DNA of 64,000 nucleotides, from positions 51,924 through 115,923 of the forward strand of contig JBNGBT010000009.1 in assembly GCA_049903315.1 (NCBI GenBank), in the 5' to 3' direction. Shown here in pieces: positions 2,788-52,726 of this stretch. Position 1 is the stretch's first letter; each line of letters opens with the position of its first letter. The notes beneath the pieces are model-generated. The model was given only the letters and a program-made list of their open reading frames with translations. It ran no database searches and had not been told where the DNA came from. A program made the position numbers and the translations under genes. Source of the stretch: Candidatus Cloacimonadota bacterium. GTDB lineage: Bacteria; Cloacimonadota; Cloacimonadia; JGIOTU-2.

Positions 2788-4515
2788 ATGATAAAAGGTG
2801 TTCTTTTCATAGTAATTTTATTTCTCTTTTCTCCTCTCAAAGCGTATGAAACTACTCCCCCTGTTATCCACAAACCTTTTGATGAATCCGCTATTACACA
2901 ACCTCGTTATATCCCTCTGCAACCTCCCTCGGGACTTGAGATCGTTAATCCTGCAGAATTCGGCAGATCCGATGGCGTCATACTTGCGTGGCCAGGATGG
3001 GGGAATGAGATCATCGGAGATATCGCTTTTGAGGTTGCTCAGGACTATAAAGTGTTCATGGTTGTTGCCAATGATTATTATGAAACAGTTGCCGCTGCAT
3101 ATCTCACTTCTGTGGGTGTGAACATGGCAAATGTGTCCTTTATTCATGATTCCACGATGAACAATTCCGGTATGTGGATTCGGGATTATGGACCCTTCTG
3201 TATACATGATGACGGCAAACGTGGAATTGATGATTTCGTTTGGAGCGGCAATTACGGCATCGATCTTATACCCTACACTATTGCAGACACGTTTGACCTC
3301 CCTCTTTATCACAGCCCTGTTATCCATCATGGCGGCAATCATATATCAGACGGCAACGGCATGGGCTTTTTCTCTACAAATATTTTCAACCATAATACTT
3401 CCTACACCCATACTCAAATTAAGCAGGAATTCAAGGATTTCTTCGGTATAGACTCCATGGTCGTGTTCGCACCAATGAATGGTGATGGCACCGGGCATGT
3501 GGATATGTTCTGCAAATTATTGAATGATACGCTTCTCATCGTCGGAGAATATGAAACTCCAAGTGCAAGTTACCCCGGCGATTATGATCTTCTAAATAAT
3601 CTGGCTGCTTATCTTGGCACACTTACCAATATTGACGGCAGAAAATTCAGGGTGGAAAGAATCCCGATGCCTGCTTATTATTATGGCGGTCCCGCAGGAA
3701 CAATAAACTACACCTATACAAATTCACTTATTATTAACAACAAGGTACTTGTGCCCGTGTATGGATTTGATATGGATGCAGCCGCATTACAGGTTTATGC
3801 AGATTTGATGCCCGACCATGAAATAATCGGCATCGATTCTGAATTTATCATCCAGTACTGGGGTGCAGTTCATTGTATTACTAGTGAGCTTTTCAGCAAC
3901 AATCCATTGATAGTACTTCATCATGCAATAGATACTCTTATAGCGGGTGTAGCTCCGCAGATAAAATTCCGGCTTAATCCAAAATTTGCTGTGTCGGGAG
4001 GATCTGTTTTTTACAAATTAGACTCAGGCATTTTTTTTACTGAAGTTATCGCAGAACTGAACGGAGGAGTATGGACTGCGAGTTTGCCTGCGATGTCAGA
4101 GAATTTCTCTTACTATATTGAAGGTTCTTCTGTTTCCGGCAGTTATAATTTCGAAACAACTCTCCCGGAAAATGCCCCCTGGGAAACCTTCCCTGTTCTT
4201 GTGGAAAATGTTGCGGCTGACAATGAACATGCTTCACCATCCATATGTCTTACCAACTACCCAAATCCTTTCAATCCATCAACGACGATCTCATTCAGCA
4301 TTCATGATCCGGGAAAAATAGAAGTGAGTATATATAATATTAAGGGGCAAAAAGTAAAGAATCTGCTCAAGGAGCCAAAAGAATCCGGCACATACTCAAT
4401 AGTTTGGAATGGGAGAGATGAAAAAGAACAAGCGGTTGAGAGCGGAATATATTTCATCAGGCTTGCCACAGAAAAAGGGCATACCACAATAAAACGAATG
4501 ATATTGATGAGATAG
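2788..4515 (+). CDS. Secreted agmatine/peptidylarginine deiminase family protein with FlgD-Ig/T9SS-type C-terminal domain
   Basis: Signal peptide; PAEF, WIRDYGP, GGN, DGTGHVD, YTNSLI and GAVHCIT deiminase motifs; C-terminal NYPNPFNPSTTISF...IYNIKGQKV...WNG...SGIYF. Confidence 0.9.
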   Translation: MIKGVLFIVILFLFSPLKAYETTPPVIHKPFDESAITQPRYIPLQPPSGLEIVNPAEFGRSDGVILAWPGWGNEIIGDIAFEVAQDYKVFMVVANDYYETVAAAYLTSVGVNMANVSFIHDSTMNNSGMWIRDYGPFCIHDDGKRGIDDFVWSGNYGIDLIPYTIADTFDLPLYHSPVIHHGGNHISDGNGMGFFSTNIFNHNTSYTHTQIKQEFKDFFGIDSMVVFAPMNGDGTGHVDMFCKLLNDTLLIVGEYETPSASYPGDYDLLNNLAAYLGTLTNIDGRKFRVERIPMPAYYYGGPAGTINYTYTNSLIINNKVLVPVYGFDMDAAALQVYADLMPDHEIIGIDSEFIIQYWGAVHCITSELFSNNPLIVLHHAIDTLIAGVAPQIKFRLNPKFAVSGGSVFYKLDSGIFFTEVIAELNGGVWTASLPAMSENFSYYIEGSSVSGSYNFETTLPENAPWETFPVLVENVAADNEHASPSICLTNYPNPFNPSTTISFSIHDPGKIEVSIYNIKGQKVKNLLKEPKESGTYSIVWNGRDEKEQAVESGIYFIRLATEKGHTTIKRMILMR

Positions 4516-4520
4516 AATTT

Positions 4521-5852
4521 ATGTTAAATTTTTTTAAATTACTGAATAAGATTTTCGGCCTATTGTTCACAATCTGCATTGTTCTTGTTCATCCAATTAT
4601 TTGGGCGGATAGCGAATCTCCTGATCTCGAATTGATTATTCAAAAAGCAGAAAATGGAGACGCTTATTACCAGGGAGTACTGGGAGGAATTTATCGTCGT
4701 GGCGAAACAGGTGAAATAAACTATAAAAAAGCCTATGATTTGTCCCGATTATCTTCTGACAAGGGTAATCCAATCGGTTCATGCAATTTAGCTGTGTTGT
4801 ATGAATATGGGATCTTCGTTACAAAAGATTCTGTCCGTGCTCATGAACTATATGCAGAAGCCTATATGCCAATGTTTGAATTGGCAAGTCAGGGCGACGA
4901 AAGGGCTCAGGTGAATTTGGGATATATGCTCGAGCTTGGTAATGGCGTTGATCCCGATCTACAAAAAGCACTGATTTGGTATGAAAGAGCTGCCGTAAAT
5001 GGATACTCTAGAGCTCAACTCATTGTGGGTTATAAGTACTATTACGGATGGGGATATGAAAAAGATTATGATAAGGCATTTGAATGGTTCAAAAAAGCGG
5101 CAGAACAAGGTTACCCAATGGCTTGGCAATTTTTGGGAATCATGTATGAAAATGGCTATGGTGTAACAAAAAGTCTTGATCGGGCTGTGAAATGGCATAG
5201 AGAAGCAGAAAAATATCAGCCCAACATAGAGGTGATGCCTCATGATTCTGTGGACTATATGTTTAATGGGATTGAATACAAGGGAGATCAAATAATTCCT
5301 GGGTTACTACCTCCCCGCTTTATACTTGAAATTCCTGAAGGCAGCTGTGGTGAATCCTGTTTGTGGAGTATCATTAATTCAAAAGAATTCATTTCTGCAC
5401 AGTTAGAGATCAACACAGATGGAGGGAGTCCCGGGAGAGGATTGCATGCAAACGAGCTTCATAAACCTTTAGATAAATATCACATTCAATATGAGGATAA
5501 TATGAACAAATCATATTTTAACTATGTGGTATCGTTTTTTAATCCTGCAAACCTTTTTTCATCACATGCAAATAAATATAGAGCTTTTTTATATGATGAG
5601 ATAATCGAGAAAGTAAAACAGGGAAATCCAATTATTTTAGGAGTTAAAATATATCCGGATAAACATTATTTTTGGGATTGTGATCACTTTATTTTACTGG
5701 TTGGATATAATGAAACTACAAACGAGTTGATCTTCAATGATTTCAACGCACGAAAAAGAATACACGCAGATAAGCTGTTAGATAAAACTGATGGATATTC
5801 CATAATAAACAGGTATAATTTTCTCAATTATATAGAAATTAAGAACTTTTAA
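4521..5852 (+). CDS. Sel1-like repeat protein fused to a C39/papain-like peptidase domain
   Basis: Repeated AQ..LG..Y..G.G...D..KA..W...AA motifs; C-terminal GSCGESCL, DHFILLVGY and LIFND (Cys-His-Asp pattern). Confidence 0.8.
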   Translation: MLNFFKLLNKIFGLLFTICIVLVHPIIWADSESPDLELIIQKAENGDAYYQGVLGGIYRRGETGEINYKKAYDLSRLSSDKGNPIGSCNLAVLYEYGIFVTKDSVRAHELYAEAYMPMFELASQGDERAQVNLGYMLELGNGVDPDLQKALIWYERAAVNGYSRAQLIVGYKYYYGWGYEKDYDKAFEWFKKAAEQGYPMAWQFLGIMYENGYGVTKSLDRAVKWHREAEKYQPNIEVMPHDSVDYMFNGIEYKGDQIIPGLLPPRFILEIPEGSCGESCLWSIINSKEFISAQLEINTDGGSPGRGLHANELHKPLDKYHIQYEDNMNKSYFNYVVSFFNPANLFSSHANKYRAFLYDEIIEKVKQGNPIILGVKIYPDKHYFWDCDHFILLVGYNETTNELIFNDFNARKRIHADKLLDKTDGYSIINRYNFLNYIEIKNF

Positions 5853-5895
5853 AATCAGTTCAAAATTAAATAAAAATTCGATCAGGAGGTTTTGT

Positions 5896-7012
5896 ATGTC
5901 GCTTGCTGCTACAATTATCGGATGGATTTTATGTGGTATCTTCTTCATCTTTAATGATCATAACCCTTTCTCTAGGAAGAATCGTTCCGGCTATACCGTT
6001 ACTTCTTACCTGTATCCTTGTTTCACCCCTTTTCGGAAAATTGTTCAAAACGAAAAACGTCAAAATCATCATGTATATTGTGCGTACAGTTCTCGTGCTT
6101 GTATTTCTTTTTGGTTTTGTCATGCTCTCGTTCATTGATGCGATAAAATATCCTTTATACAAAACCAATCAGCTCAAAGCAGACCTGCAACGCGTCTATG
6201 ATGAGAAGATGGAAAAATGGCCAGTATCTTATGAGACACAATTTGTTGAATGTGCCGGGGGAAATGCATTTGTGGTTATCTGCGGTCCTGAAGATACTCC
6301 TCCCGTTCTGCTGTTCCATGCTGCAAGTATGGGATCGTGGTCATGGCTTTATAACGTTGAAGAGCTCGCTCAAGATCATAGAGTGTATGCCATAGATTAT
6401 ATTGGGGAACCCGGTAAAAGCATTGTAACAGACGAAAAGGCAATTCCTTTTGATACTGATGGTCTTAATAAAATGTATGATGACATCATAGCAGGACTTG
6501 GCATCAACCAACCTTATGATGTAATCGGAGCGTCTTTTGGTGGATTCGTTGCAGTTAATCGTGCGATGCATGCCCCCACTGATGTCAAATCCGTTATATT
6601 ACTCGGTCCTATGGGAATGACGCCAGCCACTTCGAGCGTGAATACAAAACTTATGGCATACCAGCTATTCCCGCTTAAGCCATTCCATAAAATGATGTTC
6701 CACTGGGCTTTGGGATATGATCCTGATGTTGTTTCAGAAACAGAGGAATGGTTCTGGCTGGTGCTGAATGGTGTCACAAGAAAAGGATCACCGCCAAATA
6801 CGTTCACACCTGAGCAATTAAAAAAGATAAAAATTCCCATGCTCCTCGTTCTTGGAGACAAAGATGGGCTTGTGGGAAATCCTGAAATAGTAACTCCGCT
6901 TGCTCAAAATGTACTCAATATGAATATTGAGATTCTGCCTTCCGGTTATCTTATCGGTATGGAAAAACCGGAAGAGACCAATGCCCTGATTATGGAGTTC
7001 CTTAGTAAGTAA
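5896..7012 (+). pseudogene. Membrane-anchored alpha/beta hydrolase with a probable +1 frameshift near 5950-5952 and a catalytic His-to-Tyr change
   Basis: Strong RBS CAGGAGG precedes ATG 5896, whose frame stops at 6138; deleting one T of the TTT at 5950-5952 fuses it to the hydrolase frame (VYAIDYIGEPGKS, GASFGG, LGDKD); SGYLIGME lies where GH is expected. Confidence 0.7.
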
Positions 7013-18386: not shown

Positions 18387-19937
18387 CTACTCTTTTTTTT
18401 CTGCTGGTTTCTCTGTCAACATTAATTCGCGCTTTTTTAAGGCATTTTGTACAACCAGATATTCACTCCAGGGAACTTCCTGAGTGCCGTAACACATTGT
18501 TGTTTCGTGAGCTTTCCCACATGTAATAACCGTGTCTCCATCCTGTGCAGAAAGTATCGCTTTTTCTATTGCTTTTTTGCGATCCGGTCTCTTAAAAAAA
18601 TCAATTCCTTCTCTTCTTCCTTCCTGCATGCAGCCAGCAGCGATCTCTTTTATGATCGCATCGGGTGATTCCGTACGTGGGTCTTCTGCAGTGATGTAAA
18701 TCTTGTCTGCGAGCTGCCCTGCGACAATGCCCATTTCTCTCCGCTTTTGTACATCACGAAGTCCGGCACTTCCAAAAACGACATGTATTTGACCTTTTGT
18801 GAATGTCCTAGCCGCTCGAAGGGCTTGCTCAAGCGCATTTGCCGTATGTGCAAAATCAATGATCACATTAAAATTTCCCAGCGTATGTGGGATAAGTTCC
18901 ATCCTGCCTTTTATGCGCTTTAATGAATCAATTGCCGAGATGATCTTCTCTTTGGGAATATTTTGAGAATATGCAACTGCAATTGCTGCGAGAATATTAT
19001 AGACGTTATACTCTCCGAGAAGGTGGCTTGTAATTTTTAGCTTTTCTTTGGGTGTATGAACCGTAAATTTCAGCAATCCCTCTTTTTGAAAGATATCATC
19101 AGCCCAGAAATCTGCGTTATTACTCAACCCAAAAGAAAAATGCTGACCTGCATCATATTTGCTAAAAGTGCCGTAGATTGGATCATCATAATTGAGCACA
19201 CTTATTTTAGGGATATCTTCCTTATTATTAGATAAAGAAAGAAGCTCGAATAAATGAGCTTTTGCGCTGATGTACTCCTCCCGGGATTTATGGAAATCGA
19301 GATGTTCAGAAGTAATATTCGTGAGTACTGCAAAATCATATTCGCATGCTTCCACACGATACTGTGCGAGCCCGTGTGATGAGGTTTCTATTACTGCATA
19401 TTCTGTTCCGGCTTCAATCATTTCTGCCAGATATTTCTGGATTGATACTGCGTCGGGTGTTGTGGTATGAAATCCTGTTTGGAATACTGTATCTCCGATT
19501 ATAGCATTTATCGAAGTTATCAAACCTGTTTTGTGTCCCGCTTCGTTCAGAATATGATGTATCAGCGTCGAAGTTGTTGTCTTTCCATCCGTGCCGGTCA
19601 CACCAATGATCCCGAGCTTTCTTGCTGGAAATCCGTAAAATGCTGCGGCAAGATGAGATATTGCGTCTCTTGTATTTTTTGTTTTTATGAAAGGTATAAT
19701 CTTATCATTGGGAGAATACGCTTCGTCTTCAAACAGAACTGCTGCTGCTCCTTTTTCAATTGCTTTATGTATATAATTATGCCCGTCGGCATCAACTCCT
19801 TTGATGGCCACAAACAGGTTGCCCATCTCAAGATTTCGCGTGTCAAAAGAAATGCCGGATATATTAATTTCGTGGATGGATTTTTTGCCCAATAAAACAT
19901 AATCTTTCAGATTTTCAAGGAGTTTTTGTAACGTCAT
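18387..19937 (-). CDS. murE: UDP-MurNAc-L-Ala-D-Glu--diamino acid ligase (MurE) with a non-DNPR motif
   Basis: GVTGTDGKTT, TTP, ETSSHG, TNITSEHLDFH, GRME, DFAHT, FGSAGLRD, AEDPR and GKAHE. Confidence 0.9.
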   Translation of the reverse strand: MTLQKLLENLKDYVLLGKKSIHEINISGISFDTRNLEMGNLFVAIKGVDADGHNYIHKAIEKGAAAVLFEDEAYSPNDKIIPFIKTKNTRDAISHLAAAFYGFPARKLGIIGVTGTDGKTTTSTLIHHILNEAGHKTGLITSINAIIGDTVFQTGFHTTTPDAVSIQKYLAEMIEAGTEYAVIETSSHGLAQYRVEACEYDFAVLTNITSEHLDFHKSREEYISAKAHLFELLSLSNNKEDIPKISVLNYDDPIYGTFSKYDAGQHFSFGLSNNADFWADDIFQKEGLLKFTVHTPKEKLKITSHLLGEYNVYNILAAIAVAYSQNIPKEKIISAIDSLKRIKGRMELIPHTLGNFNVIIDFAHTANALEQALRAARTFTKGQIHVVFGSAGLRDVQKRREMGIVAGQLADKIYITAEDPRTESPDAIIKEIAAGCMQEGRREGIDFFKRPDRKKAIEKAILSAQDGDTVITCGKAHETTMCYGTQEVPWSEYLVVQNALKKRELMLTEKPAEKKE

Positions 19938-21019
19938 TACTCTTCCAAAGAATCAGAGATCTTGCCCTTTTTAATGAGGCTGCGGAGCGATACATAGGTT
20001 TTTATTCCGCCGTTCATAAGCTTGTACCAGAATGGCTTGAATACATGATCCTGCATGCCGATGAATTTCCTGAACTCACCACCGAATCCCTTTTTGAAGC
20101 GATACACGCCAAAGAGCGGATGTCCCTCGTGGGGATGAGCAGGCACACCCCAGAGGTCATATATTTTATATCCCTGCTTCTGAGCCCACTGTATCACATG
20201 CCAGTGCAGCGCCTGGTTCGGCATGACATTTCGATATTCATTCGAGGATGCGCCGTACATGTACCAAATTTTTTGTCCAAATGCAAAGATATACACCCCA
20301 GCAACAGGAACGTTCTTATAATATGCCATAAATAATCGCACCATCCCTTTGTCTGCCATTTGCTCGATTACTCGTTTATAGTACTCAAAATTATGTATGA
20401 TGAATGCATCGCGCCTTGCAGTGGTTTCATAAATATCATAAAATTTCTGTGCGCCTTCCAGCGAAGTTTCTTCTCTTACTTCTACTCCTTTTTTCATCGA
20501 AAGCCGGATATTGTACCGTGTTTTTGATTCGCATCCTGCAAGAATATCCTCGGCTGATTTCGTGAGATCAAGAAAGTATGTTGCTCTTGGTTGTATCTGC
20601 TTTTTTACAAAATGAAAATTATGCTCTTGCAAAATACTGAGTGCCGTTTCATTATCTTCATCAATTTCAGGATCGATTTTCAGAACAATTGCATTATATT
20701 GTTTGGCAATCTGGGAAATTTTATCCATCAGTGCAGAGAAATGTTCGCGTTTTGTAACATCGATAACCGGGCCTCGCGGTGCATAGAACAGGCATTTTCC
20801 TATATATGGAATTTTCCGTTTTTGTATAGATATACCGCCTACTATTTTGCGGTCCTCGAAAACGGCAATTCTGATCGGCACCCAGCCGGAAATTCTCTTT
20901 ATCTCTCCCCATTCATAGGATTGGATGATCGGACATTCCGGCGTGGAAGCCACGAAGGTATTCCATGCGGAAAATTCTTCTTCGGTCTCTAAAATCTTGC
21001 ATTCAATATTTACATTCAT
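19937..21019 (-). CDS. FemABX/MurM family tRNA-dependent peptidoglycan bridge aminoacyltransferase
   Basis: QSYEWGEIK...W, YAPRGP, LKIDP, IQPRAT, KTRYNIR, YMYGAS, YDLWG and GVYRFKKGFGG. Confidence 0.9.
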   Translation of the reverse strand: MNVNIECKILETEEEFSAWNTFVASTPECPIIQSYEWGEIKRISGWVPIRIAVFEDRKIVGGISIQKRKIPYIGKCLFYAPRGPVIDVTKREHFSALMDKISQIAKQYNAIVLKIDPEIDEDNETALSILQEHNFHFVKKQIQPRATYFLDLTKSAEDILAGCESKTRYNIRLSMKKGVEVREETSLEGAQKFYDIYETTARRDAFIIHNFEYYKRVIEQMADKGMVRLFMAYYKNVPVAGVYIFAFGQKIWYMYGASSNEYRNVMPNQALHWHVIQWAQKQGYKIYDLWGVPAHPHEGHPLFGVYRFKKGFGGEFRKFIGMQDHVFKPFWYKLMNGGIKTYVSLRSLIKKGKISDSLEE

Positions 21020-41035: not shown

Positions 41036-42796
41036 TTAATATCTTAATATCGGCTCTTTATCAAAATAATATCCTAAAATTTTACCGGCGAGTATTGCTG
41101 CAATGTCCGCTCCGGATCCGCCCTGTTCCACAAAGATAAGAACGGCTATCTCTGGATCATTCATTGGCGCTACTGCAACGAACCATGCATGGGTGTCTCC
41201 ATAATAATTTTCTGCGGAACCTGTTTTTCCACCAACCATAATATCTTTTACCCGGGCCATTCCACCTGTTCTTCCCTTTGCATTGACGGCTTCATACAAA
41301 GATTGTTTCAAGAGATCAAGGGTGTTTTGCGAAATTGGCAATCTCATTTGAGGATATTTATAGGGTTCTGTGATTTCATCCCGAATTGCATAATCTACAA
41401 AATGCGGACGATGCACAATTCCATTGTTTGCTATACCAGCATAAAAACAAGCCATTGATAGGGGTGTGAGAAGCACTTCACCCTGTCCGATAGTCAGGTT
41501 CAGCAGGTTACCTCTTGTCCAGCCCAATTTCCCATAATTTTTGTCATACCATTCTGAGGTTGGAAAGAAACCTTTTCTGCTTCGGATTTGGTCAACAGGA
41601 ATGCTTTCCAGAAGATTGCAGTCTTTTACAAATTCCATAAAATCGTTAAGGTCCATCATTTCTGCAATTTTATAAAAATATGAATCACACGACTCTCTTA
41701 TTGCATCGAGAAGATTAACTTTTCCGTGCCCATCCTCTTTCCAACATCCAAAAAACCTACCCCCATATTCTACTCCTCCTTCGCAATCAACGAGATTTTC
41801 ATGCGGCTCGACAAGGTTTCTTTCTAGTGCATAAGCTGCTACAACAAGCTTAAAAACGGATCCAGGCGGGTATGCTGCGCTCATAGCTTTATTCAAGAGC
41901 GGATTGTTCTCATCCTCCACTATTTGCTTCCAATAATCCTCATTCATACCAGTAACGAAATTATTCGGATCATATTCCGGAGTGCTTACCATTGCCACGA
42001 TCCCGCCTGTTTTACAATTCATCACAATGGCTACAGCTGAAGTATCTTTAGGGAGCAGTTGTGCAATTTTTTTTTGAAGACTTTTGTCGACCGTTAACAC
42101 AAAATCTTTCCCTGGTAAAGATTGTTTTCCGGAATTTTCTTTCATGAGACCCAGTGGTTGCCCCGTTGCGTCCACCTGGATGACATCGTATCCTTTTTCA
42201 CCCTTGAGCTCCGTCTCGAAACATTTCTCCAAACCAACTTTGCCAATATAATCTGTTTTTGAATAATCTCCATCTTGGAGCGTTTGATACTCCGCAGATG
42301 ACATCTTTCCTACATATCCGATATAATGAGAGTTTAGGTCATAATATCTGATTGCTTCCGGTTTAATAATGACTGCCGGGTATTCTTCGCTGTGTTCCTC
42401 AAGCTTGATCGCGATTTCCATATCAACTTTATCCTGTACAAGAACCGGTGCAAATTTGAAAAACCTGTGTTTATAGATGAGCTCAGAAATTTTCTCTACA
42501 GGAACCCCAAGATTTCCGGACAGGAAAGCCGCGACGTTGTCTGCATCTGTAATTTCATTGATATCAATATAAACTGAAAGGGATGGTATATTTTCTGTGA
42601 GCGGCTGCATATTGCGGTCATACAGGATGCCCCTGCGGGCGGGTTTTTTTATAATGCGAAAATAATTTTTCTCGGCAATTTCTTTGTACTCATTTCCCTT
42701 TACGACCTGTATCTGAAACAAAAAATAGGTAAACATCAGAAACAAAGCCAGTACGAGAATCAATAGCTGGTCGGCTTTTTTCAGCTTCAATTTCAT
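41036..42796 (-). CDS. mrdA: Penicillin-binding protein 2
   Basis: ARRGILYDRN, GKVGLEK, YPPGSVFK (SxxK), SCD, IGQG and GKTGSAE; last gene of the mre operon. Confidence 0.95.
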   Translation of the reverse strand: MKLKLKKADQLLILVLALFLMFTYFLFQIQVVKGNEYKEIAEKNYFRIIKKPARRGILYDRNMQPLTENIPSLSVYIDINEITDADNVAAFLSGNLGVPVEKISELIYKHRFFKFAPVLVQDKVDMEIAIKLEEHSEEYPAVIIKPEAIRYYDLNSHYIGYVGKMSSAEYQTLQDGDYSKTDYIGKVGLEKCFETELKGEKGYDVIQVDATGQPLGLMKENSGKQSLPGKDFVLTVDKSLQKKIAQLLPKDTSAVAIVMNCKTGGIVAMVSTPEYDPNNFVTGMNEDYWKQIVEDENNPLLNKAMSAAYPPGSVFKLVVAAYALERNLVEPHENLVDCEGGVEYGGRFFGCWKEDGHGKVNLLDAIRESCDSYFYKIAEMMDLNDFMEFVKDCNLLESIPVDQIRSRKGFFPTSEWYDKNYGKLGWTRGNLLNLTIGQGEVLLTPLSMACFYAGIANNGIVHRPHFVDYAIRDEITEPYKYPQMRLPISQNTLDLLKQSLYEAVNAKGRTGGMARVKDIMVGGKTGSAENYYGDTHAWFVAVAPMNDPEIAVLIFVEQGGSGADIAAILAGKILGYYFDKEPILRY

Positions 42797-43275
42797 TTTT
42801 GAGTAAAGCTTAGTTTAAGATGGTCTGCGAGGTATAAAAGGAGTATTATTATAAAAGAATATGCTGAATTATAGAGAGAGAGAACGATGATCTTTCCAAG
42901 CGCAAGCGCATCGCCTGTATTAAATATCAGGAATATCGCTGATGAAAGAAAAAAATAGAACAGGTTGGCGAGGATTACCAGTACAAATCCTATCCCGATC
43001 AGCTGTCTGCTCAGTAATCTCTTGAGTCTGCTGAGGTTAAATGCTATAATGAGAAAAAGCAGGGGCGATACTCCAAATGATGAGGGCTGATTAAGGTCAA
43101 TAATTATGCCGAGGATGAATGCTAAGACAAAACCGGAAACATTCTCCCGCGTGAGGTTATAATAGATAATCAGTGGTAAAAAAAGATTCGGTATCGTTTC
43201 CCATAATCCAAATGATGCTGCAAAAAAATATTGAAAATAGACTGTGAATATGGTGACGAGAATGAGAACGATCAT
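42793..43275 (-). CDS. mreD: Rod shape-determining protein MreD
   Basis: PNLFL...AFILGIIID...FG; hydrophobic; ATGA overlaps at both ends. Confidence 0.85.
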   Translation of the reverse strand: MIVLILVTIFTVYFQYFFAASFGLWETIPNLFLPLIIYYNLTRENVSGFVLAFILGIIIDLNQPSSFGVSPLLFLIIAFNLSRLKRLLSRQLIGIGFVLVILANLFYFFLSSAIFLIFNTGDALALGKIIVLSLYNSAYSFIIILLLYLADHLKLSFTQK

Positions 43276-43952
43276 AGCTTCTCCCAAACAAGGCACAATG
43301 GCGTGAGTTCCATTTGCTGTCCCTGTGGATTATCTCCCATGATCTCTTCGAGAAGCCGGGCATTAATTCCGGCTGATCTGCCAATAACCCACGATCCGCC
43401 TATGTCATTGATATCCATGATTGCGGCTTCGTTCCCAGTTATTTCATGAATTTTCCGGCATATCTCGTCCGTATGAATAGGACCTTTGATAACAGTCTTG
43501 TTGTACGGCGTTACTGGTGATGTGTGTGCAGCATCGACAAGTGCCGCTTGCTTACCAGCAATGCGGTAAAAGAGTCCGTGTATTCCAAATAATTTCCCGA
43601 TAGCGCCGGCAATTGCCGCTATTATAATCCTAAGGTGGCCGCACTCGTCTATTGCGCACTGCATGCTTGTTTTTGAGCGCAAGCCAACTCCATATGGTAC
43701 TTTGCTTACTCCTCGCCAGAGAAGTTTTGAGAGAAGTCCGATCTTTATCTCGTCTTCCAGTACAGCCCTTCCTTGAGTGATCGCCACAGGGCTTTCGCTC
43801 ATGACGATAATATCACCCGCTTTTCTTTTTCCTTCTGTATATTCAAGTACGATATTTACAATGTCGTCTTCGGGCGTTAAAATTTTTGTTTTGATGGGTT
43901 GCCTTAAATAGATTTTCGTTTCTACTGTTCTTTCTGTGATGTTATTTTTCAT
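43272..43952 (-). CDS. F420-0:gamma-glutamyl ligase (CofE)-like amide ligase inserted between mreC and mreD
   Basis: TKILTPEDDI, GDIIVMSESPVAITQGR, FYRIAG...VD, IMDIND and DNPQGQ..E.TP motifs. Confidence 0.8.
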   Translation of the reverse strand: MKNNITERTVETKIYLRQPIKTKILTPEDDIVNIVLEYTEGKRKAGDIIVMSESPVAITQGRAVLEDEIKIGLLSKLLWRGVSKVPYGVGLRSKTSMQCAIDECGHLRIIIAAIAGAIGKLFGIHGLFYRIAGKQAALVDAAHTSPVTPYNKTVIKGPIHTDEICRKIHEITGNEAAIMDINDIGGSWVIGRSAGINARLLEEIMGDNPQGQQMELTPLCLVWEKL

Positions 43953-44709
43953 AATTTTGAATTATCGCCACTGCCTCGATATTCGCGAGATTTACATAAG
44001 GTTCTATAGCTGCCCTTGTGAAAAGTCCATCGCTGCTTTGCTCGATCTCAACGATATTTCCAAATGGAAGTTCGGGAGGGTAAATCGAGCTTAGTTTTGA
44101 GGAAACGATCTGGTCTCCTGTTTTCAGATCACTCCCGACCTTGATCTTTTCAAAATATATCTTTCCGTTCAGTTCAGTTTGTACTATTCCGTGAATCCTG
44201 CTTCTGCTGTCAATCGCACCAAGCCGGAAATACTTGTTTCCAAAGGTTTGCACTACTGCATAATTCTGGTAAACAGTGATCACTTTTCCCACAAGCCCTT
44301 TTTCTGAAATAACTGGTTGATTGACCAGAATGCTTTTATTTTTTCCTGCGTCAATAATAAGCGTCTCATAGTTGAGAAATGATCCTGTTCCTATGACATC
44401 TGCTATTAAAAATTCATAGCCGGAAATATCAATATTTTCTACCAACTCTTCGAATCTTTTACTTTTACTGAGCCCTTCCTTGAGCATTCGCAATTCGTTC
44501 TGTGCAAGAAAAAGCTCTCTTTGCAGATAATTGTTCCTTTGGTATACATTTGAGAGATTTTTTATATAGGTGATACTCGATGAAAAGGGTAATAGGATTG
44601 TATTGCCGACGAATTGCGCTTTTTCAATTCTCTCCTGATTGTTTCCAATTATAAAGAGAATTGAGAGAATAAGAAGGATGCCGAAAACGATGTTTCTTCT
44701 GGTGAACAT
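43942..44709 (-). CDS. mreC: Rod shape-determining protein MreC
   Basis: TM, coiled coil, ADVIG, IIDAG, PVISEKGLVGKV and GDQIVSS....IYP. Confidence 0.92.
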   Translation of the reverse strand: MFTRRNIVFGILLILSILFIIGNNQERIEKAQFVGNTILLPFSSSITYIKNLSNVYQRNNYLQRELFLAQNELRMLKEGLSKSKRFEELVENIDISGYEFLIADVIGTGSFLNYETLIIDAGKNKSILVNQPVISEKGLVGKVITVYQNYAVVQTFGNKYFRLGAIDSRSRIHGIVQTELNGKIYFEKIKVGSDLKTGDQIVSSKLSSIYPPELPFGNIVEIEQSSDGLFTRAAIEPYVNLANIEAVAIIQNYEK

Positions 44710-44739
44710 AGGAACTCGTATTAGATTTCGTCTGTTCTA

Positions 44740-45771
44740 TTATACTTTTGGCAAAAGGACTTTTTCGTATTCTTCGAGATTATCTAATATCTTACCACAG
44801 CCCATGACCACACTGGTTAAGGGTTCGTCAACGAGCGTCACCGGAAGATTTATTGTCTCCTGTATTCTCCTATCAAGTCCTTTTAGTTGCCCTGCGCCAC
44901 CTGTCAGCACCACCCCTCTATCAGCAATATCGGCAGAAAGCTCTGGAGCTGTTTCTTCGAAGAGGCGTTTCACTGCATCGACAATTTTATTCACGGTGTC
45001 GGCAAGCCCTTCCCTGATCTCTTCGGAGGATATTTTCATAGAAACAGGATATCCTGTGATCAGATCTCGTCCGCGTACTTCCATGGTCAGTTCATCTTCA
45101 AGAGGAAATGCAGAGCCGATCTTCATTTTTATTCTTTCTGCGGTTGATTCTCCGATATAAAGATTATGCTTCCTTCTCAGATATGCAACGATTGCCTCGT
45201 CCATCTCATCACCGCCAATACGAATAGAATTATGGTCAACAATATGAGAAAGAGATATAATCGCAATTTCTGTGGTTCCACCGCCAATATCGATGATCAT
45301 ATTGCCATATGGTTCATGAACCGGTAAACCTACGCCTATCGCTGAAGCAAGAGGTTCCGAAACAAGATATACTGTTCTTGCACCTGCGTGTTCTGCCGAT
45401 TCTTTAACTGCTCGCTTTTCAACTTCTGTAATTCCTGAGGGTACTGCAACGATCACCCTGGGTCTTATCAAGAACTTCTTCTGTTGTGATTGAAGAATAA
45501 GATGGCGTAGCATTGTTTCCGTGATCTCAAAATTAGCGATCACCCCGTCCTTCATGGGCTTGATCGCCCTGATCTCTTCAGGTGTCTTGCCCAGCATCTC
45601 TTTTGCTTTATTTCCAATTGCTATGACCTTTTTGGATTCCGTCTCCACAGCAACTACTGAGGGTTCGTTGACAACAACTCCATGCCCTTTCAGATATACA
45701 AGTGTATTTGCTGTACCCAGATCAATCGCCACATCGTTTGTTAACCAATTTAAAATAAAATCCCAAAACAT
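44740..45771 (-). CDS. mreB: Rod shape-determining protein MreB
   Basis: AIDLGTANT, EPSVVA, PMKDGVIA, TEVEKRAV, DIGGGTT and PELSADI. Confidence 0.98.
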   Translation of the reverse strand: MFWDFILNWLTNDVAIDLGTANTLVYLKGHGVVVNEPSVVAVETESKKVIAIGNKAKEMLGKTPEEIRAIKPMKDGVIANFEITETMLRHLILQSQQKKFLIRPRVIVAVPSGITEVEKRAVKESAEHAGARTVYLVSEPLASAIGVGLPVHEPYGNMIIDIGGGTTEIAIISLSHIVDHNSIRIGGDEMDEAIVAYLRRKHNLYIGESTAERIKMKIGSAFPLEDELTMEVRGRDLITGYPVSMKISSEEIREGLADTVNKIVDAVKRLFEETAPELSADIADRGVVLTGGAGQLKGLDRRIQETINLPVTLVDEPLTSVVMGCGKILDNLEEYEKVLLPKV

Positions 45772-47364: not shown

Positions 47365-48609
47365 TTAGTTCCAATATTCTTTATATTTCGGGTCTAATTT
47401 TGGTATTTCTTTATCCTTTTTAAACTCTTTTGGGTTTCTCCACCAATCCGTTGATGAGAATCCAAAGGAGATACGGAAAAATTCATCTTGATAGATATTT
47501 TTATCCACAGATCCGCGTGTTCCATATGCAAGTGACACACTCAGTCTGCCCTGATTTAATAGCATTATAGGTATATCGAATCCTGCTGTTAGTGCCATTT
47601 CATCAATGTAATTACCTTTGGCTTTGCAAGAAAGCTGTCTGTAATATCCCCCTATTCTTGTGGGTGTCTTCCAGAAAAAATCCTTCTTTGGTGTATATGA
47701 AATTCCAAGTGAAACCATGTTTGTGTTTCTGCCATTCATTGTTTCAACGTTTGTATTTTTCCAGAAAGTATAACGTAAATCAGTTTCTGCATAGAGAAAA
47801 TCTGTTACTTCCCCACCCACTCCAAAACCCATCTGCATAGGGATATCATATTTTGAAGTAGTACTGTTTACATAATCATAGCTTGCATTGTTATAATATT
47901 CGATCTTGTAAGTGTCCACTGAATGTAATTTTGCTTTGGTTTGAATGAAGCCGCCAAAGGAGAAAATTTTATAGGGGAAAGTAAATCCTGCCGAGAAGTT
48001 CACTCCATCCATAAGATTTTGTTTTATCTCTCTTGTATCAATCAGGTCATTATCAGAATAATCTATGTGCAAGTCCTCGGTTCGGTTACCAAAGATATAG
48101 TTCATATTGATACCAAATCCAAAAACTCCGATCCTCTTTGCAAGCGCAAAGCCAAGTTGATTAAGAGAGCCAAACTTTTTATCAGTTACAAGGTAATCTC
48201 CTACAAGGCTTGCTGTGTCTTGTAATGCGGTATTAAGCCCAAAAAAATACTTCTCAAGAAAAGATATGCCAAGAATTGTTCCTTTGGCAACGGGGACATA
48301 CATTGCAGCATACGGCACACTTGAAACTTTGTTCGTATATGATCCATTTGAATCTTTGAAAACTGTATACCCAAAATCTGTCTGTGTTGAAAAATTTGCT
48401 TTATTTACAGTGGTGAGAAGAGCTGGATTTATTATTGAGAAATTCTTTCTGAATATCGAACTGATTCCGGTAAATCCCATACCCGATCCAAAATTGTCCG
48501 AGCCAAAATGTTCTTCAACAAATCCATTTGGTGAAAACATGGACGCACTGAACAAGGGAGTTATTAAGCAACAAAACAGAAGACATATTATTATTTTTCT
48601 AAAAAACAT
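47365..48609 (-). CDS. FadL/OmpP1-like outer-membrane barrel protein
   Basis: Signal peptide; GSGMG...INPA N-terminal motif; P...GFG; YGTRGS...RISFGF. Confidence 0.7.
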   Translation of the reverse strand: MFFRKIIICLLFCCLITPLFSASMFSPNGFVEEHFGSDNFGSGMGFTGISSIFRKNFSIINPALLTTVNKANFSTQTDFGYTVFKDSNGSYTNKVSSVPYAAMYVPVAKGTILGISFLEKYFFGLNTALQDTASLVGDYLVTDKKFGSLNQLGFALAKRIGVFGFGINMNYIFGNRTEDLHIDYSDNDLIDTREIKQNLMDGVNFSAGFTFPYKIFSFGGFIQTKAKLHSVDTYKIEYYNNASYDYVNSTTSKYDIPMQMGFGVGGEVTDFLYAETDLRYTFWKNTNVETMNGRNTNMVSLGISYTPKKDFFWKTPTRIGGYYRQLSCKAKGNYIDEMALTAGFDIPIMLLNQGRLSVSLAYGTRGSVDKNIYQDEFFRISFGFSSTDWWRNPKEFKKDKEIPKLDPKYKEYWN

Positions 48610-48619
48610 AGTACCTCAT

Positions 48620-49771
48620 TTATTCTAAAACTGGCTTTGTATAAATAATGTGCAGTGGTGGCGTGCTGTTTTCAAAGAGATCCACGAATGAATAATCCTT
48701 ATTTTCATGATTTGATACGATAGCAATAAAAGGATTTGACAGGTCGCCCCTGATCATACCTTCAAGGATCGGCGTGATATTTACGGTTGAAAGAGAATCT
48801 CCATCTTTGAAATAGGAAGTCGGAGTTGATGAAATATAGGTGCATTCATCTGTTTGAGTATCAGAAACATAATAAGGAATTATTGTAATGTAATCATCAT
48901 CCACATATGCATTTTCGACCATAAAGGAATCTATCTGGATTTCGGCTAAATTCATGCTGATCCGCTCAAGCTGGTCAAGCGTAATCCCAAGCTGAGAATA
49001 TATAGAATCCACATGCACCTTCAGGATAAGCCGCGAAGGTGGTAGATTTGCAAAGGTCATTTTGCCAGGATCATAGTTCTTCTGCATGTTTTCGTCGTAC
49101 CCGATAAAAGTATCTTTTGTTGTAGCGAGAAGAAGAGTATCTCTCTTTCCTGTGTCGTTACCAACAGCAACGATCTTGAGTTTCGCACCTCTATCACTCG
49201 AATTGAAGGTATAGAATTCTGCAAAATTCTCTATTGCATCCGGGGCATCGAGAAGTATACCGAAATTCAAAGAATCATTAGTAATCCAATCCTCAACTAT
49301 TGAAGGATCAATTGGAACATAGAATGAATCAGCTTCAGATACAAATTCAACAGGGATAGGGAAATCTTCAAACTCTGTTCCAATCGTATCCCATGTTGCA
49401 GAACCAACTGCCCAATCGACAAGAAGTTTGTATACATGGATATCAATAGTGGGTTGGAACTGTGACTTACGTTCAAAGAGAATTTCACAACTTTCAAAAG
49501 AGGTCGAATCCAGCCACGTTGTATCCGGCAATGTACCAAATCTCATGAGCGATCTGGTTTTCACTCCATTAAAGTTACCCACCAACATGATCGAGTTTGA
49601 TGAGTATATCCCAATCGTATCTGTAAACGATCTTTCTAAAGTGATTGCATGCGAAATAGTATCAGATACTATTACAACGTCCTGATCGTATCCCATATAA
49701 TTATTTTTTTGAGTACAAGACAGAATACCGATCAAAAAGACAAGCAAAATTACGGAAATAAACTTATTCAT
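48620..49771 (-). CDS. Lipoprotein (DUF4270/DNRLRE-like beta-sandwich)
   Basis: Lipobox ILSC; RSLMRF, ATW, VEDWI...NFGILL and PLHIIYT. Confidence 0.65.
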   Translation of the reverse strand: MNKFISVILLVFLIGILSCTQKNNYMGYDQDVVIVSDTISHAITLERSFTDTIGIYSSNSIMLVGNFNGVKTRSLMRFGTLPDTTWLDSTSFESCEILFERKSQFQPTIDIHVYKLLVDWAVGSATWDTIGTEFEDFPIPVEFVSEADSFYVPIDPSIVEDWITNDSLNFGILLDAPDAIENFAEFYTFNSSDRGAKLKIVAVGNDTGKRDTLLLATTKDTFIGYDENMQKNYDPGKMTFANLPPSRLILKVHVDSIYSQLGITLDQLERISMNLAEIQIDSFMVENAYVDDDYITIIPYYVSDTQTDECTYISSTPTSYFKDGDSLSTVNITPILEGMIRGDLSNPFIAIVSNHENKDYSFVDLFENSTPPLHIIYTKPVLE

Positions 49772-51522: not shown

Positions 51523-51778
51523 TTTTGGTGTATTTCGAATCCTGAAATTTTTTTTCAAAAAAGGCTGATTGAAATAACTCCTGTCAACAAAAAGTTCCCT
51601 CTCGGCTAATATTAAACCATTCTTTTTACGATTCTTAATATTTCCATATAAGTTACTACAAGGTAATGTATAAATTATTATATTATTTACACCTCTTCAT
51701 GAAGTGTGTAAAACTTGACATTAGTAAGGAACAAACAGCAAATTAACATAAGAAAAATATTAATAATTTTTGAATAAA

Positions 51779-52726
51779 ATGAGTAACAAAAAAAGCTGGC
51801 ATATCCTCATTACGAGCAATTCTGCGACGGGAGTGAAAGACCTTCACATATCCAAACCATTGATTCTATTCCTCGTGATTTTTGTATCTATTTTTGTTAT
51901 TGCTACCGGAGTAATAACTTATTTTTTTGTTACCAGCGAAGTTGACAGACACCAGCTGCGAGAACTCCAGGCACATAACATCAAACTCAAAAATGAGATG
52001 ACGAGAATAAATTCCTTGCTTGACACTATGCAATTTGAACTTAAGAATGTTCAGGATAGAGACAAAGAAGTGCGAGAACTCGAGGGATTGCGCCCTATTG
52101 ATGATGACATTCGCCAAATGGGTGTTGGTGGTATTCAATATTTTGATTCCACATTTTTCTCTATGGACGAAGAGCTATTTAATGTCCATAACACCGTTCT
52201 GAACAAAATTGATGCTTTCGCACGACAGATTGACCTTGAAGAGACTAGCTTTGCCGAGATCTCAAAATATCTTACAGTAAAGAATACGATCTATAACCAC
52301 ACTCCATCCATCAAACCGACATATGGAAGGATTTCGGAAGGATATGGATACCGGGTTCACCCAATCTATGATGTGAGGCACTTCCATCATGGGGTTGACA
52401 TTGCAAACAAAGAGGGTTCTGTCATCTACGCAGCAGCGGACGGACGAGTTGCCGATAAAGGATATCACGAAGATTACGGATACTATTTACTGATCGACCA
52501 CGGTTATGGTTATAAGACATTCTATGGTCATTTCAGGAAGAGATTTGTAGAGATAGGACAGGAAGTAACAAAATATCAAATAATCGGAGAGATGGGCTCG
52601 ACCGGCACTTCAACAGGATCTCATCTTCATTACGAGGTGCGATTCTACGGCAAGAGCACCAACCCAATTAATTATTTCGACAAAAAGAAATCTACGATAT
52701 ACGTAGATAAAAGATATCTTTCATAA
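51779..52726 (+). CDS. M23 family peptidoglycan endopeptidase with TM and coiled coil
   Basis: TPSIKP, YGYRVHP, HHGVDIA, YGH and STGSHLHYEV. Confidence 0.92.
   Translation: MSNKKSWHILITSNSATGVKDLHISKPLILFLVIFVSIFVIATGVITYFFVTSEVDRHQLRELQAHNIKLKNEMTRINSLLDTMQFELKNVQDRDKEVRELEGLRPIDDDIRQMGVGGIQYFDSTFFSMDEELFNVHNTVLNKIDAFARQIDLEETSFAEISKYLTVKNTIYNHTPSIKPTYGRISEGYGYRVHPIYDVRHFHHGVDIANKEGSVIYAAADGRVADKGYHEDYGYYLLIDHGYGYKTFYGHFRKRFVEIGQEVTKYQIIGEMGSTGTSTGSHLHYEVRFYGKSTNPINYFDKKKSTIYVDKRYLS

Follow-up and report, generated by a model that had tools for sequence, protein, structure and literature searches.

A stretch of 64,000 nucleotides from a Candidatus Cloacimonadota bacterium (GenBank assembly GCA_049903315.1, contig JBNGBT010000009.1, positions 51,924 to 115,923 of the forward strand; hereafter the window) carries, between the cell-shape genes mreC and mreD, a gene for a protein of 226 amino acids (aa) that adopts the fold of the F420-0:glutamate ligase CofE. 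This gene (43272..43952, minus strand, in window coordinates), here referred to as X, is a real, conserved and mis-annotated CofE-fold gene of a non-F420 family, and it probably encodes a stem-peptide tailoring ligase, predicted to be cytoplasmic, to lie at the membrane surface and to form amides. With somewhat better than even confidence, we propose that X is a cytoplasmic, membrane-bound enzyme that joins an amine to a stem-peptide carboxyl of lipid I or lipid II, probably that of D-Glu2. What was observed in favor of this proposal is the fold, a set of conserved acidic motifs, the lack of an F420 pathway, the operon position, and the neighbors and fusion partners of relatives.

Inspection of the sequence confirmed the minus-strand gene order mreB (44740..45771), mreC (43942..44709), X, mreD (42793..43275) and mrdA (encoding PBP2; 41036..42796), as well as both gene overlaps described by the first-pass annotation of the window: the 3' end of mreC and the start of X have 11 bp in common (43942-43952), and the ATG of mreD (43275-43273) shares the tetranucleotide ATGA with the TGA stop of X. 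MreB scored above the cut-offs of NF010539 and TIGR00904, PBP2 above that of TIGR03423. The description of this setting as a Rod operon holds for the mreBCD-mrdA genes around X; rodA is encoded on a different contig. Promoter and terminator scans stayed at chance level (25 versus 26.7 and 7 versus 6.7, respectively).

At the level of sequence, PF01996 covered only residues 20-99 of X, scoring 29.7 bits against a cut-off of 25, while no NCBIfam model, CofE models included, matched at E≤1. Searches of the sequences of solved structures with X or with a narrow family profile retrieved no CofE, a broad profile alone reaching it. The structural comparison nevertheless bore out the earlier assignment of the inserted gene as CofE-like: an AlphaFold2 model (predicted local distance difference test score 89.9, from an 81-sequence alignment) had A. 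fulgidus CofE as its sole Foldseek match (E 5.9e-9), and VIA-align superposed the two with a Z of 15.0 and a root-mean-square deviation (rmsd) of 3.0 over 181 residues at 17% identity, the next match having a Z of 4.6.

Residues of X and CofE were compared through the broad-profile alignment to 2G9I (all positions that follow are on the minus strand). X S52-R62 (SESPVAITQGR; 43767..43799) aligned to CofE C39-R49, with E53 standing for S40 and I58 for K45. The segment D180-I-N182-D183 (43404..43415), aligned to CofE D150-T151-N152-G153 within a weak, 5.4-bit segment of the hidden Markov model, is a likely metal-binding motif, and D140 (43533..43535), which is 99% conserved and which we take to be equivalent to CofE D109, is a likely metal ligand. 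In CofE, the metal-binding acidic residues are presumably D109, D150 and E208; judging by the end offset of the structural match, the position of E208 appears to correspond to Gln212 of X. The latter residue falls into a family-wide C-terminal motif, N208-P-Q-G-Q-Q-M-E-L-T-P218 (43299..43331), and the protein ends eight residues on. Over 152 family domains, D47, E53, R62, D140, D180, N182, D183, N208, G211, T217 and P218 are conserved at 86-99%.

Two further features set the X family apart from CofE, in which R234 stacks on the F420 ring (PMC10861534). In the modeled structure, the C-terminal arm carrying this arginine is missing from X, because the structural match extends no further than CofE residue 222 and most family members end soon after the last motif (a median of 11 residues beyond the TP; 20 or fewer in 118 of 146). 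In addition, residues 70-133 (43554..43745) are helical, hydrophobic and cationic, with a net positive charge in 99% of 151 family domains and a core helix at 106-124 (family mean hydropathy 1.17, net charge +2.8). From its composition, we infer that this cationic hydrophobic helix provides a membrane-binding surface.

The genome itself offers no setting for F420 synthesis. Neither cofC nor cofD nor cofG was found in this 96.4%-complete assembly, which has one PF01996 gene; cofD was found in none of 158 Cloacimonadota genomes at ≥90% completeness, and a strong PF01996 match in none of 114. Both searches were positive in F420-making archaea used as controls. The lack of further F420 genes, first noted for the window, thus extends to the genome, and X is very probably not an F420 ligase. 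Separately, a second, distinct PF01996-like protein is encoded on a short contig of one genome (3-734) and has only its N-terminal 53 columns in common with the X family; when tried as a bridge from X to full CofE sequences, it gave no connection.

Within the phylum, 184 of 232 genomes carry X, as do 124 of the 151 that are of high quality, nearly always as a single copy. Neighborhoods were counted for the best 80 of 159 GTDB loci. Mre genes were present at 72 of these, and X lay directly between mreC and mreD in 70 of the 72, the exceptions being a contig end and a locus without mreC upstream; this placement is not due to chance. At one locus, neither mreB nor mreC is present in the 6 kb upstream of X-mreD-mrdA, the split falling exactly at the mreC/X junction. 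Among the 48 X-negative genomes, ten that represent five families were examined, and in 10/10 mreC abuts mreD. A core Rod component would be retained together with the operon; X is not, and is instead an old, repeatedly lost accessory gene. Together with the absence of mre genes from all 45 Sumerlaeota loci described below, this speaks against the dedicated elongasome part that X had initially been given. Six single-contig Cloacimonadota genomes of 1.5-1.6 Mb, all from one family, lack both X and PgsB; mreB-C-D-mrdA is retained in that family (checked in one genome), which is a reduced lineage. No X-family match was obtained on plasmids with four queries, and no relative on viral contigs in three scans.

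To place X in a wider context, a family profile search was used, which gave 1233 representatives; the best 150 of these were considered, and the 92 longest were domain-scanned. Fusions among the 92 were to an AsnB-type amidotransferase (11), Amidase_3 (6) and TPR (12), besides eight single fusions, i.e., to GNAT, M20 peptidase, PgsA-type, PlsY, HD, adenylate kinase, polysaccharide deacetylase and AhpC domains. In a set of 14 longer matches, AsnB was found in nine and Amidase_3 in four. The Amidase_3 fusions have no hydrophobic N-terminus; they would seem to be MurNAc-L-Ala amidases of the cytoplasm that may serve recycling. Named members come from Sporomusa, Pelosinus, Propionispora, Leptolyngbya, Caldisericia, Natranaerofaba, Oscillospiraceae, Coprothermobacterota and Uhrbacteria, as well as from Marchantia, Chlorokybus and Tetraselmis; none of the homologs named in this search came from a glaucophyte, Veillonella or Selenomonas. 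Mean identity within the family is about 28-35%. In a tree of 82 of 152 family domains, the three eukaryotic proteins clustered with cyanobacterial ones (SH-like approximate likelihood-ratio test, SH-aLRT, 95), and the clade of X as well as the Negativicutes/cyanobacteria clade each received an SH-aLRT of 99. An independent double origin of the AsnB fusions was not shown by this tree. Marchantia carries a plastid peptidoglycan toolkit (PMC10784329).

In the Sumerlaeota, the closest clade, 55 of 69 genomes have the gene. Their 45 loci contained no mre genes, argD or argF in 12 and an adjacent dapF in two, other neighbors varying. A frequent arrangement there has argD and/or argF ahead of the gene, and a GAF-domain histidine kinase is often encoded next downstream. 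A second domain, considered for the long Sumerlaeota frames, was rejected: no second Pfam domain was present, and the starts are probably over-extended. Finally, at one Phycisphaerae locus the family gene abuts murJ, the family occurring in 1 of 201 Planctomycetota genomes. The linkage of homologs to cell-wall genes, which the first-pass annotation had set as a check, is seen with murI (see below), murJ and dapF and in the fusions to AsnB and Amidase_3, and is mostly missing in Sumerlaeota.

The murI linkage comes from Negativicutes-type relatives, a set of 80 metagenome loci with 61 distinct homologs, assigned to this group by their identity of 62-83% with the Sporomusa protein. Neighbors were counted at the 48 loci with at least 1.6 kb of upstream sequence: an acyl-CoA thioesterase and a small membrane-anchored partner were each present at all 48, murI within two genes upstream of the homolog at 35, and speD nearby at 15. 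The partner domain, which has no Pfam match, has a gene of its own immediately ahead of the ligase gene (for instance, 5432-5977 of one locus) and makes up the N-terminal 180 aa of the ~400-aa fused forms of cyanobacteria, green algae (Chlorokybus) and other Terrabacteria. Judged by the charge bias of the N-terminal anchors, the C-terminus faces the cytoplasm in 17/19 fused forms and 48/52 partner genes. The membrane-anchored partner is absent from the genome of the window, and Cloacimonadota lack it.

Polyamination of D-Glu is an ATP-dependent, membrane-bound activity to which no gene is known to have been assigned. In Negativicutes, cadaverine or putrescine is attached to the D-Glu alpha-carboxyl (PMC10628300, PMC5020339, 10.1101/2021.05.31.446380), and in glaucophytes N-acetylputrescine is carried on stem residue 2 (PMC9434261); the passages on D-Glu polyamination in three of these sources (PMC10628300, PMC5020339, PMC9434261) name no gene for the activity. 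Tentatively, and with clearly less confidence than in the function of X itself, we suggest that the CofE-fold family might constitute a second, MurT/GatD-independent route to D-Glu2, one that would include the enzyme for the cadaverine and putrescine of Negativicutes and the N-acetylputrescine of glaucophytes and would have persisted in Cloacimonadota, Sumerlaeota, cyanobacteria and those plants that retain peptidoglycan, with an undescribed D-Glu2 substituent in each.

Wall contexts in separate lineages (mreC/mreD, murI, murJ, dapF, and the AsnB and Amidase_3 fusions) make a peptidoglycan-precursor ligase the best reading of X. In the proposed reaction, X would attach to the cytoplasmic side of the membrane by its cationic hydrophobic helix and, like CofE, would use a nucleoside triphosphate and a divalent metal. 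It would phosphorylate a free carboxyl of the stem peptide on lipid I or lipid II, most likely the alpha-carboxyl of D-Glu2, and condense the resulting acyl-phosphate with an amine. This tailoring step would be accessory, i.e., co-expressed with the Rod genes in Cloacimonadota and dispensable to them. Hence, of the original idea that an amine is ligated to lipid II or the stem peptide for the elongasome, the amide ligation of a precursor is retained on the strength of wall neighbors and fusions, and the elongasome-dedicated role is given up.

The choice of D-Glu2 draws on the MurE enzymes that accompany X. The window encodes a stand-alone MurE with an EDPR motif (18387..19937, minus strand), the only MurE of this genome, whose dcw cluster is without murE, and paired with it a Fem/MurM-type aminoacyltransferase (19937..21019, minus strand), a pair confined to the window's order. 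Both genes are real; the joint chemistry with X that had been suggested for them is not supported, and we count neither as belonging with X. Outside the window's order, a strong Fem match (E<1e-18) turned up in a single genome, so that 9 of the 97 X-positive genomes among 114 have such a match, and a DNPR-type MurE was found in 5/5 genomes checked from other families, four of them X-positive. The DNPR motif denotes meso-diaminopimelate (mDAP), EDPR a different residue. A target other than residue 3 fits, because X coexists with DNPR and EDPR MurE alike; X would work with either residue-3 type, pointing to a common part of the stem such as D-Glu2. The DNPR MurE frames of the five genomes are 930-965 aa long, the size of a MurE-MurF fusion. 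The EDPR MurE and Fem pair is a mark of the window's order. Matches to dapF and of the LysA type are likewise missing from that order, which suggests that this diderm lineage has exchanged mDAP for lysine or ornithine in a stem bearing a side chain.

Which amine would be used may differ between hosts. The genome of the window has no amino-acid decarboxylase of the AR, AAT or pyruvoyl folds, no SpeD match, no MurT_C domain, no SLH domain (SLH occurs in 2 of 114 Cloacimonadota genomes) and no full-length AsnB (best E 1.4e-8); its sole spermidine-synthase-like match lies within a 710-aa frame. When co-occurrence was surveyed within the phylum for Fem, SLH, AR-fold decarboxylase, AsnB and PgsB, no partner tracked X. 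Since decarboxylases and SLH are missing here and X does not follow decarboxylases, it is unlikely that this bacterium makes its own diamine for an OmpM tether, and the diamine entertained at the outset gives way to an amino acid or an imported amine as the more likely substrate. In the Negativicutes-type relatives, the amine is probably cadaverine or putrescine. As a separate observation, genes for an AsnB-type protein and an AR-fold amino-acid decarboxylase are immediate neighbors in two genomes.

Several results weigh against a D-Glu2 ligase. CofE Lys45, a residue of the GTP site, is replaced by I58 in X and by Ile in 76% of the 152 family domains, so that nucleotide use is not assured. X is 36% identical to the Sporomusa protein, and the join between their two clades in the tree is weak, so substrates may differ. 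In Negativicutes-type loci, the thioesterase link (48/48) is tighter than that of murI (35/48), and the latter may be incidental, the thioesterase-murI-rph block being an old Firmicutes synteny. Sumerlaeota loci are mostly without wall neighbors, leaving only modest support from the closest clade, and the plant distribution amounts to three taxa. Among 114 Cloacimonadota genomes, X does not track AR-fold decarboxylases: 60 have both, 37 X only, 14 the decarboxylase only and three neither. The 12 TPR fusions and the single PlsY, PgsA-type, adenylate kinase, M20, HD, GNAT and AhpC fusions say nothing for peptidoglycan.

Of the alternatives, the one that survives best reverses the polarity of the reaction. 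X would activate the side-chain carboxyl of free D-Glu or D-Asp and join it to the side-chain amine of stem residue 3, and the resulting interpeptide bridge would then be amidated by the fused AsnB; in lactococci, a D-Asp ligase/AsnH pair makes and amidates an interpeptide bridge in this manner. The murI and dapF neighbors, the AsnB fusions (11/92) and the native activation of a glutamyl gamma-carboxyl by CofE (PMC10861534) would all be accommodated. We nonetheless regard this as unlikely, given that Veillonella peptidoglycan is listed in a literature table as type A1gamma, with direct cross-links, that X is found with DNPR and EDPR MurE alike, and that the present genome, which lacks a full-length AsnB, encodes an enzyme of the Fem type for residue 3.

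Alternatively, X could act on membrane lipids, forming a fatty-acid acyl-phosphate or an aminoacyl lipid (an ornithine lipid, for example), its presence in envelope operons serving co-regulation. The thioesterase at 48/48 Negativicutes-type loci, argD or argF at 12/45 Sumerlaeota loci, the PlsY and PgsA-type fusions and the membrane helix are compatible with such a role, to which we assign a low probability: the lipid-related fusions are single sequences, whereas those to AsnB and Amidase_3 form multi-member groups; a thioesterase of that type was not found in this genome; and the mreC/mreD and murJ positions are peptidoglycan-specific.

Still less probable in our view is a non-catalytic regulator of wall synthesis that binds a nucleotide or precursor through a repurposed F420-enzyme fold, as GlmR/YvcK is a repurposed CofD fold. 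Loss of K45, the dispensability of X, the TPR fusions (12/92) and the lack of a PF01933 (GlmR/CofD) protein in this genome could be explained in this way, but the near-invariance of D140, D180, N182 and N208 over 152 domains at ~28-35% identity has the appearance of a working active site, and the fusions are to enzymes of amide chemistry.

Just below the regulator we rank the idea that X retains glutamate as its amine and primes or anchors poly-gamma-glutamate on the wall precursor in Cloacimonadota. PgsB is indeed present in 107 of 114 Cloacimonadota genomes, this one included, and in 96 of the 97 that are X-positive, and a 2026 paper describes a phylum-wide poly-gamma-glutamate operon (PMC13082233). 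Yet 11 PgsB-positive genomes are without X, the joint loss of the two concerns one reduced family, X and pgsB lie on different contigs, and the homologs of Negativicutes, cyanobacteria and plants would be left unexplained. The reading of X as an ordinary F420-0:glutamate ligase, the name that such proteins carry in databases, can practically be dismissed despite its above-cut-off PF01996 match, its CofE fold and the NCBI naming, given the lack of cofC, cofD and cofG here, the phylum-wide counts for cofD (0/158) and strong PF01996 matches (0/114), the failure of NCBIfam CofE models and the missing R234 region.

Other features surround the mreB-mrdA cluster. Upstream of it lie recJ, two envelope genes and dnaA, and three tRNA genes follow mrdA. 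The envelope genes, between dnaA and recJ-mreB (47365-49771, minus strand), encode a weak match to a BamG-like outer-membrane barrel and a DNRLRE-domain lipoprotein, a pair kept upstream of recJ-mreB in the closest genomes. An M23 peptidoglycan endopeptidase (51770-52726, plus strand) is divergent from dnaA. On another contig of this genome, two tandem, divergent carbamoyltransferases, both scoring below all NCBIfam cut-offs, lie beside a carbamate kinase (2956-6438 of that stretch).

If a precursor ligase is indeed what X encodes, a fold so far known only from cofactor synthesis would also serve wall synthesis, the name 'F420-0:L-glutamate ligase' would be wrong for thousands of genes, which give false signs of F420 metabolism, and an unrecognized stem-peptide modification would exist in Cloacimonadota, Sumerlaeota and plant plastids. 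Polyamine on peptidoglycan D-Glu underlies outer-membrane tethering in Negativicutes, and the X family offers a concrete candidate gene for the enzyme. In the literature covered, which scarcely included subscription papers, we found no paper assigning the X family to peptidoglycan; the nearest was a report on QimC, a CofE-like protein of unreported role in the qim wall-modification operon of Streptococcus pyogenes (PMC12803152).

How does X compare with known systems? With CofE, it shares the fold, an alignable N-terminal nucleotide-binding segment and an alignable D150 motif, and the chemistry would be that of CofE, an acyl-phosphate followed by an amide, as in MurD (PMC8498797). CofE acts as a homodimer whose active site lies at the interface. 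It differs in its 17% identity, the replaced K45, the absent R234 arm and the extra cationic hydrophobic helices, and in being found in hosts without an F420 pathway and in a context of cell-wall genes. QimC resembles X as a CofE-like protein in a bacterial wall-modification setting; by the value given in that paper, it is far nearer to CofE than X is (rmsd 0.97 to 2PHN). In staphylococci, MurT/GatD amidates the D-Glu2 alpha-carboxyl (PMC3266927). By analogy, the proposed target of X, a D-Glu alpha-carboxyl on a lipid-linked precursor, and an amide formation driven by a nucleoside triphosphate would be alike. MurT has a Mur-ligase fold and receives ammonia from GatD, whereas X has the CofE fold and no glutaminase partner here, in a genome without MurT_C. 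The polyamination systems parallel the X family in that homologs are found in Negativicutes (Sporomusa, Pelosinus, Propionispora) and in the cyanobacterial-plastid clade, and in that the reaction needs a membrane-bound, cytoplasm-facing ligase; in contrast, the host of X has neither SLH/OmpM nor diamine synthesis. X thus belongs with neither CofE nor MurT/GatD, yet probably works like the former on a target like that of the latter.

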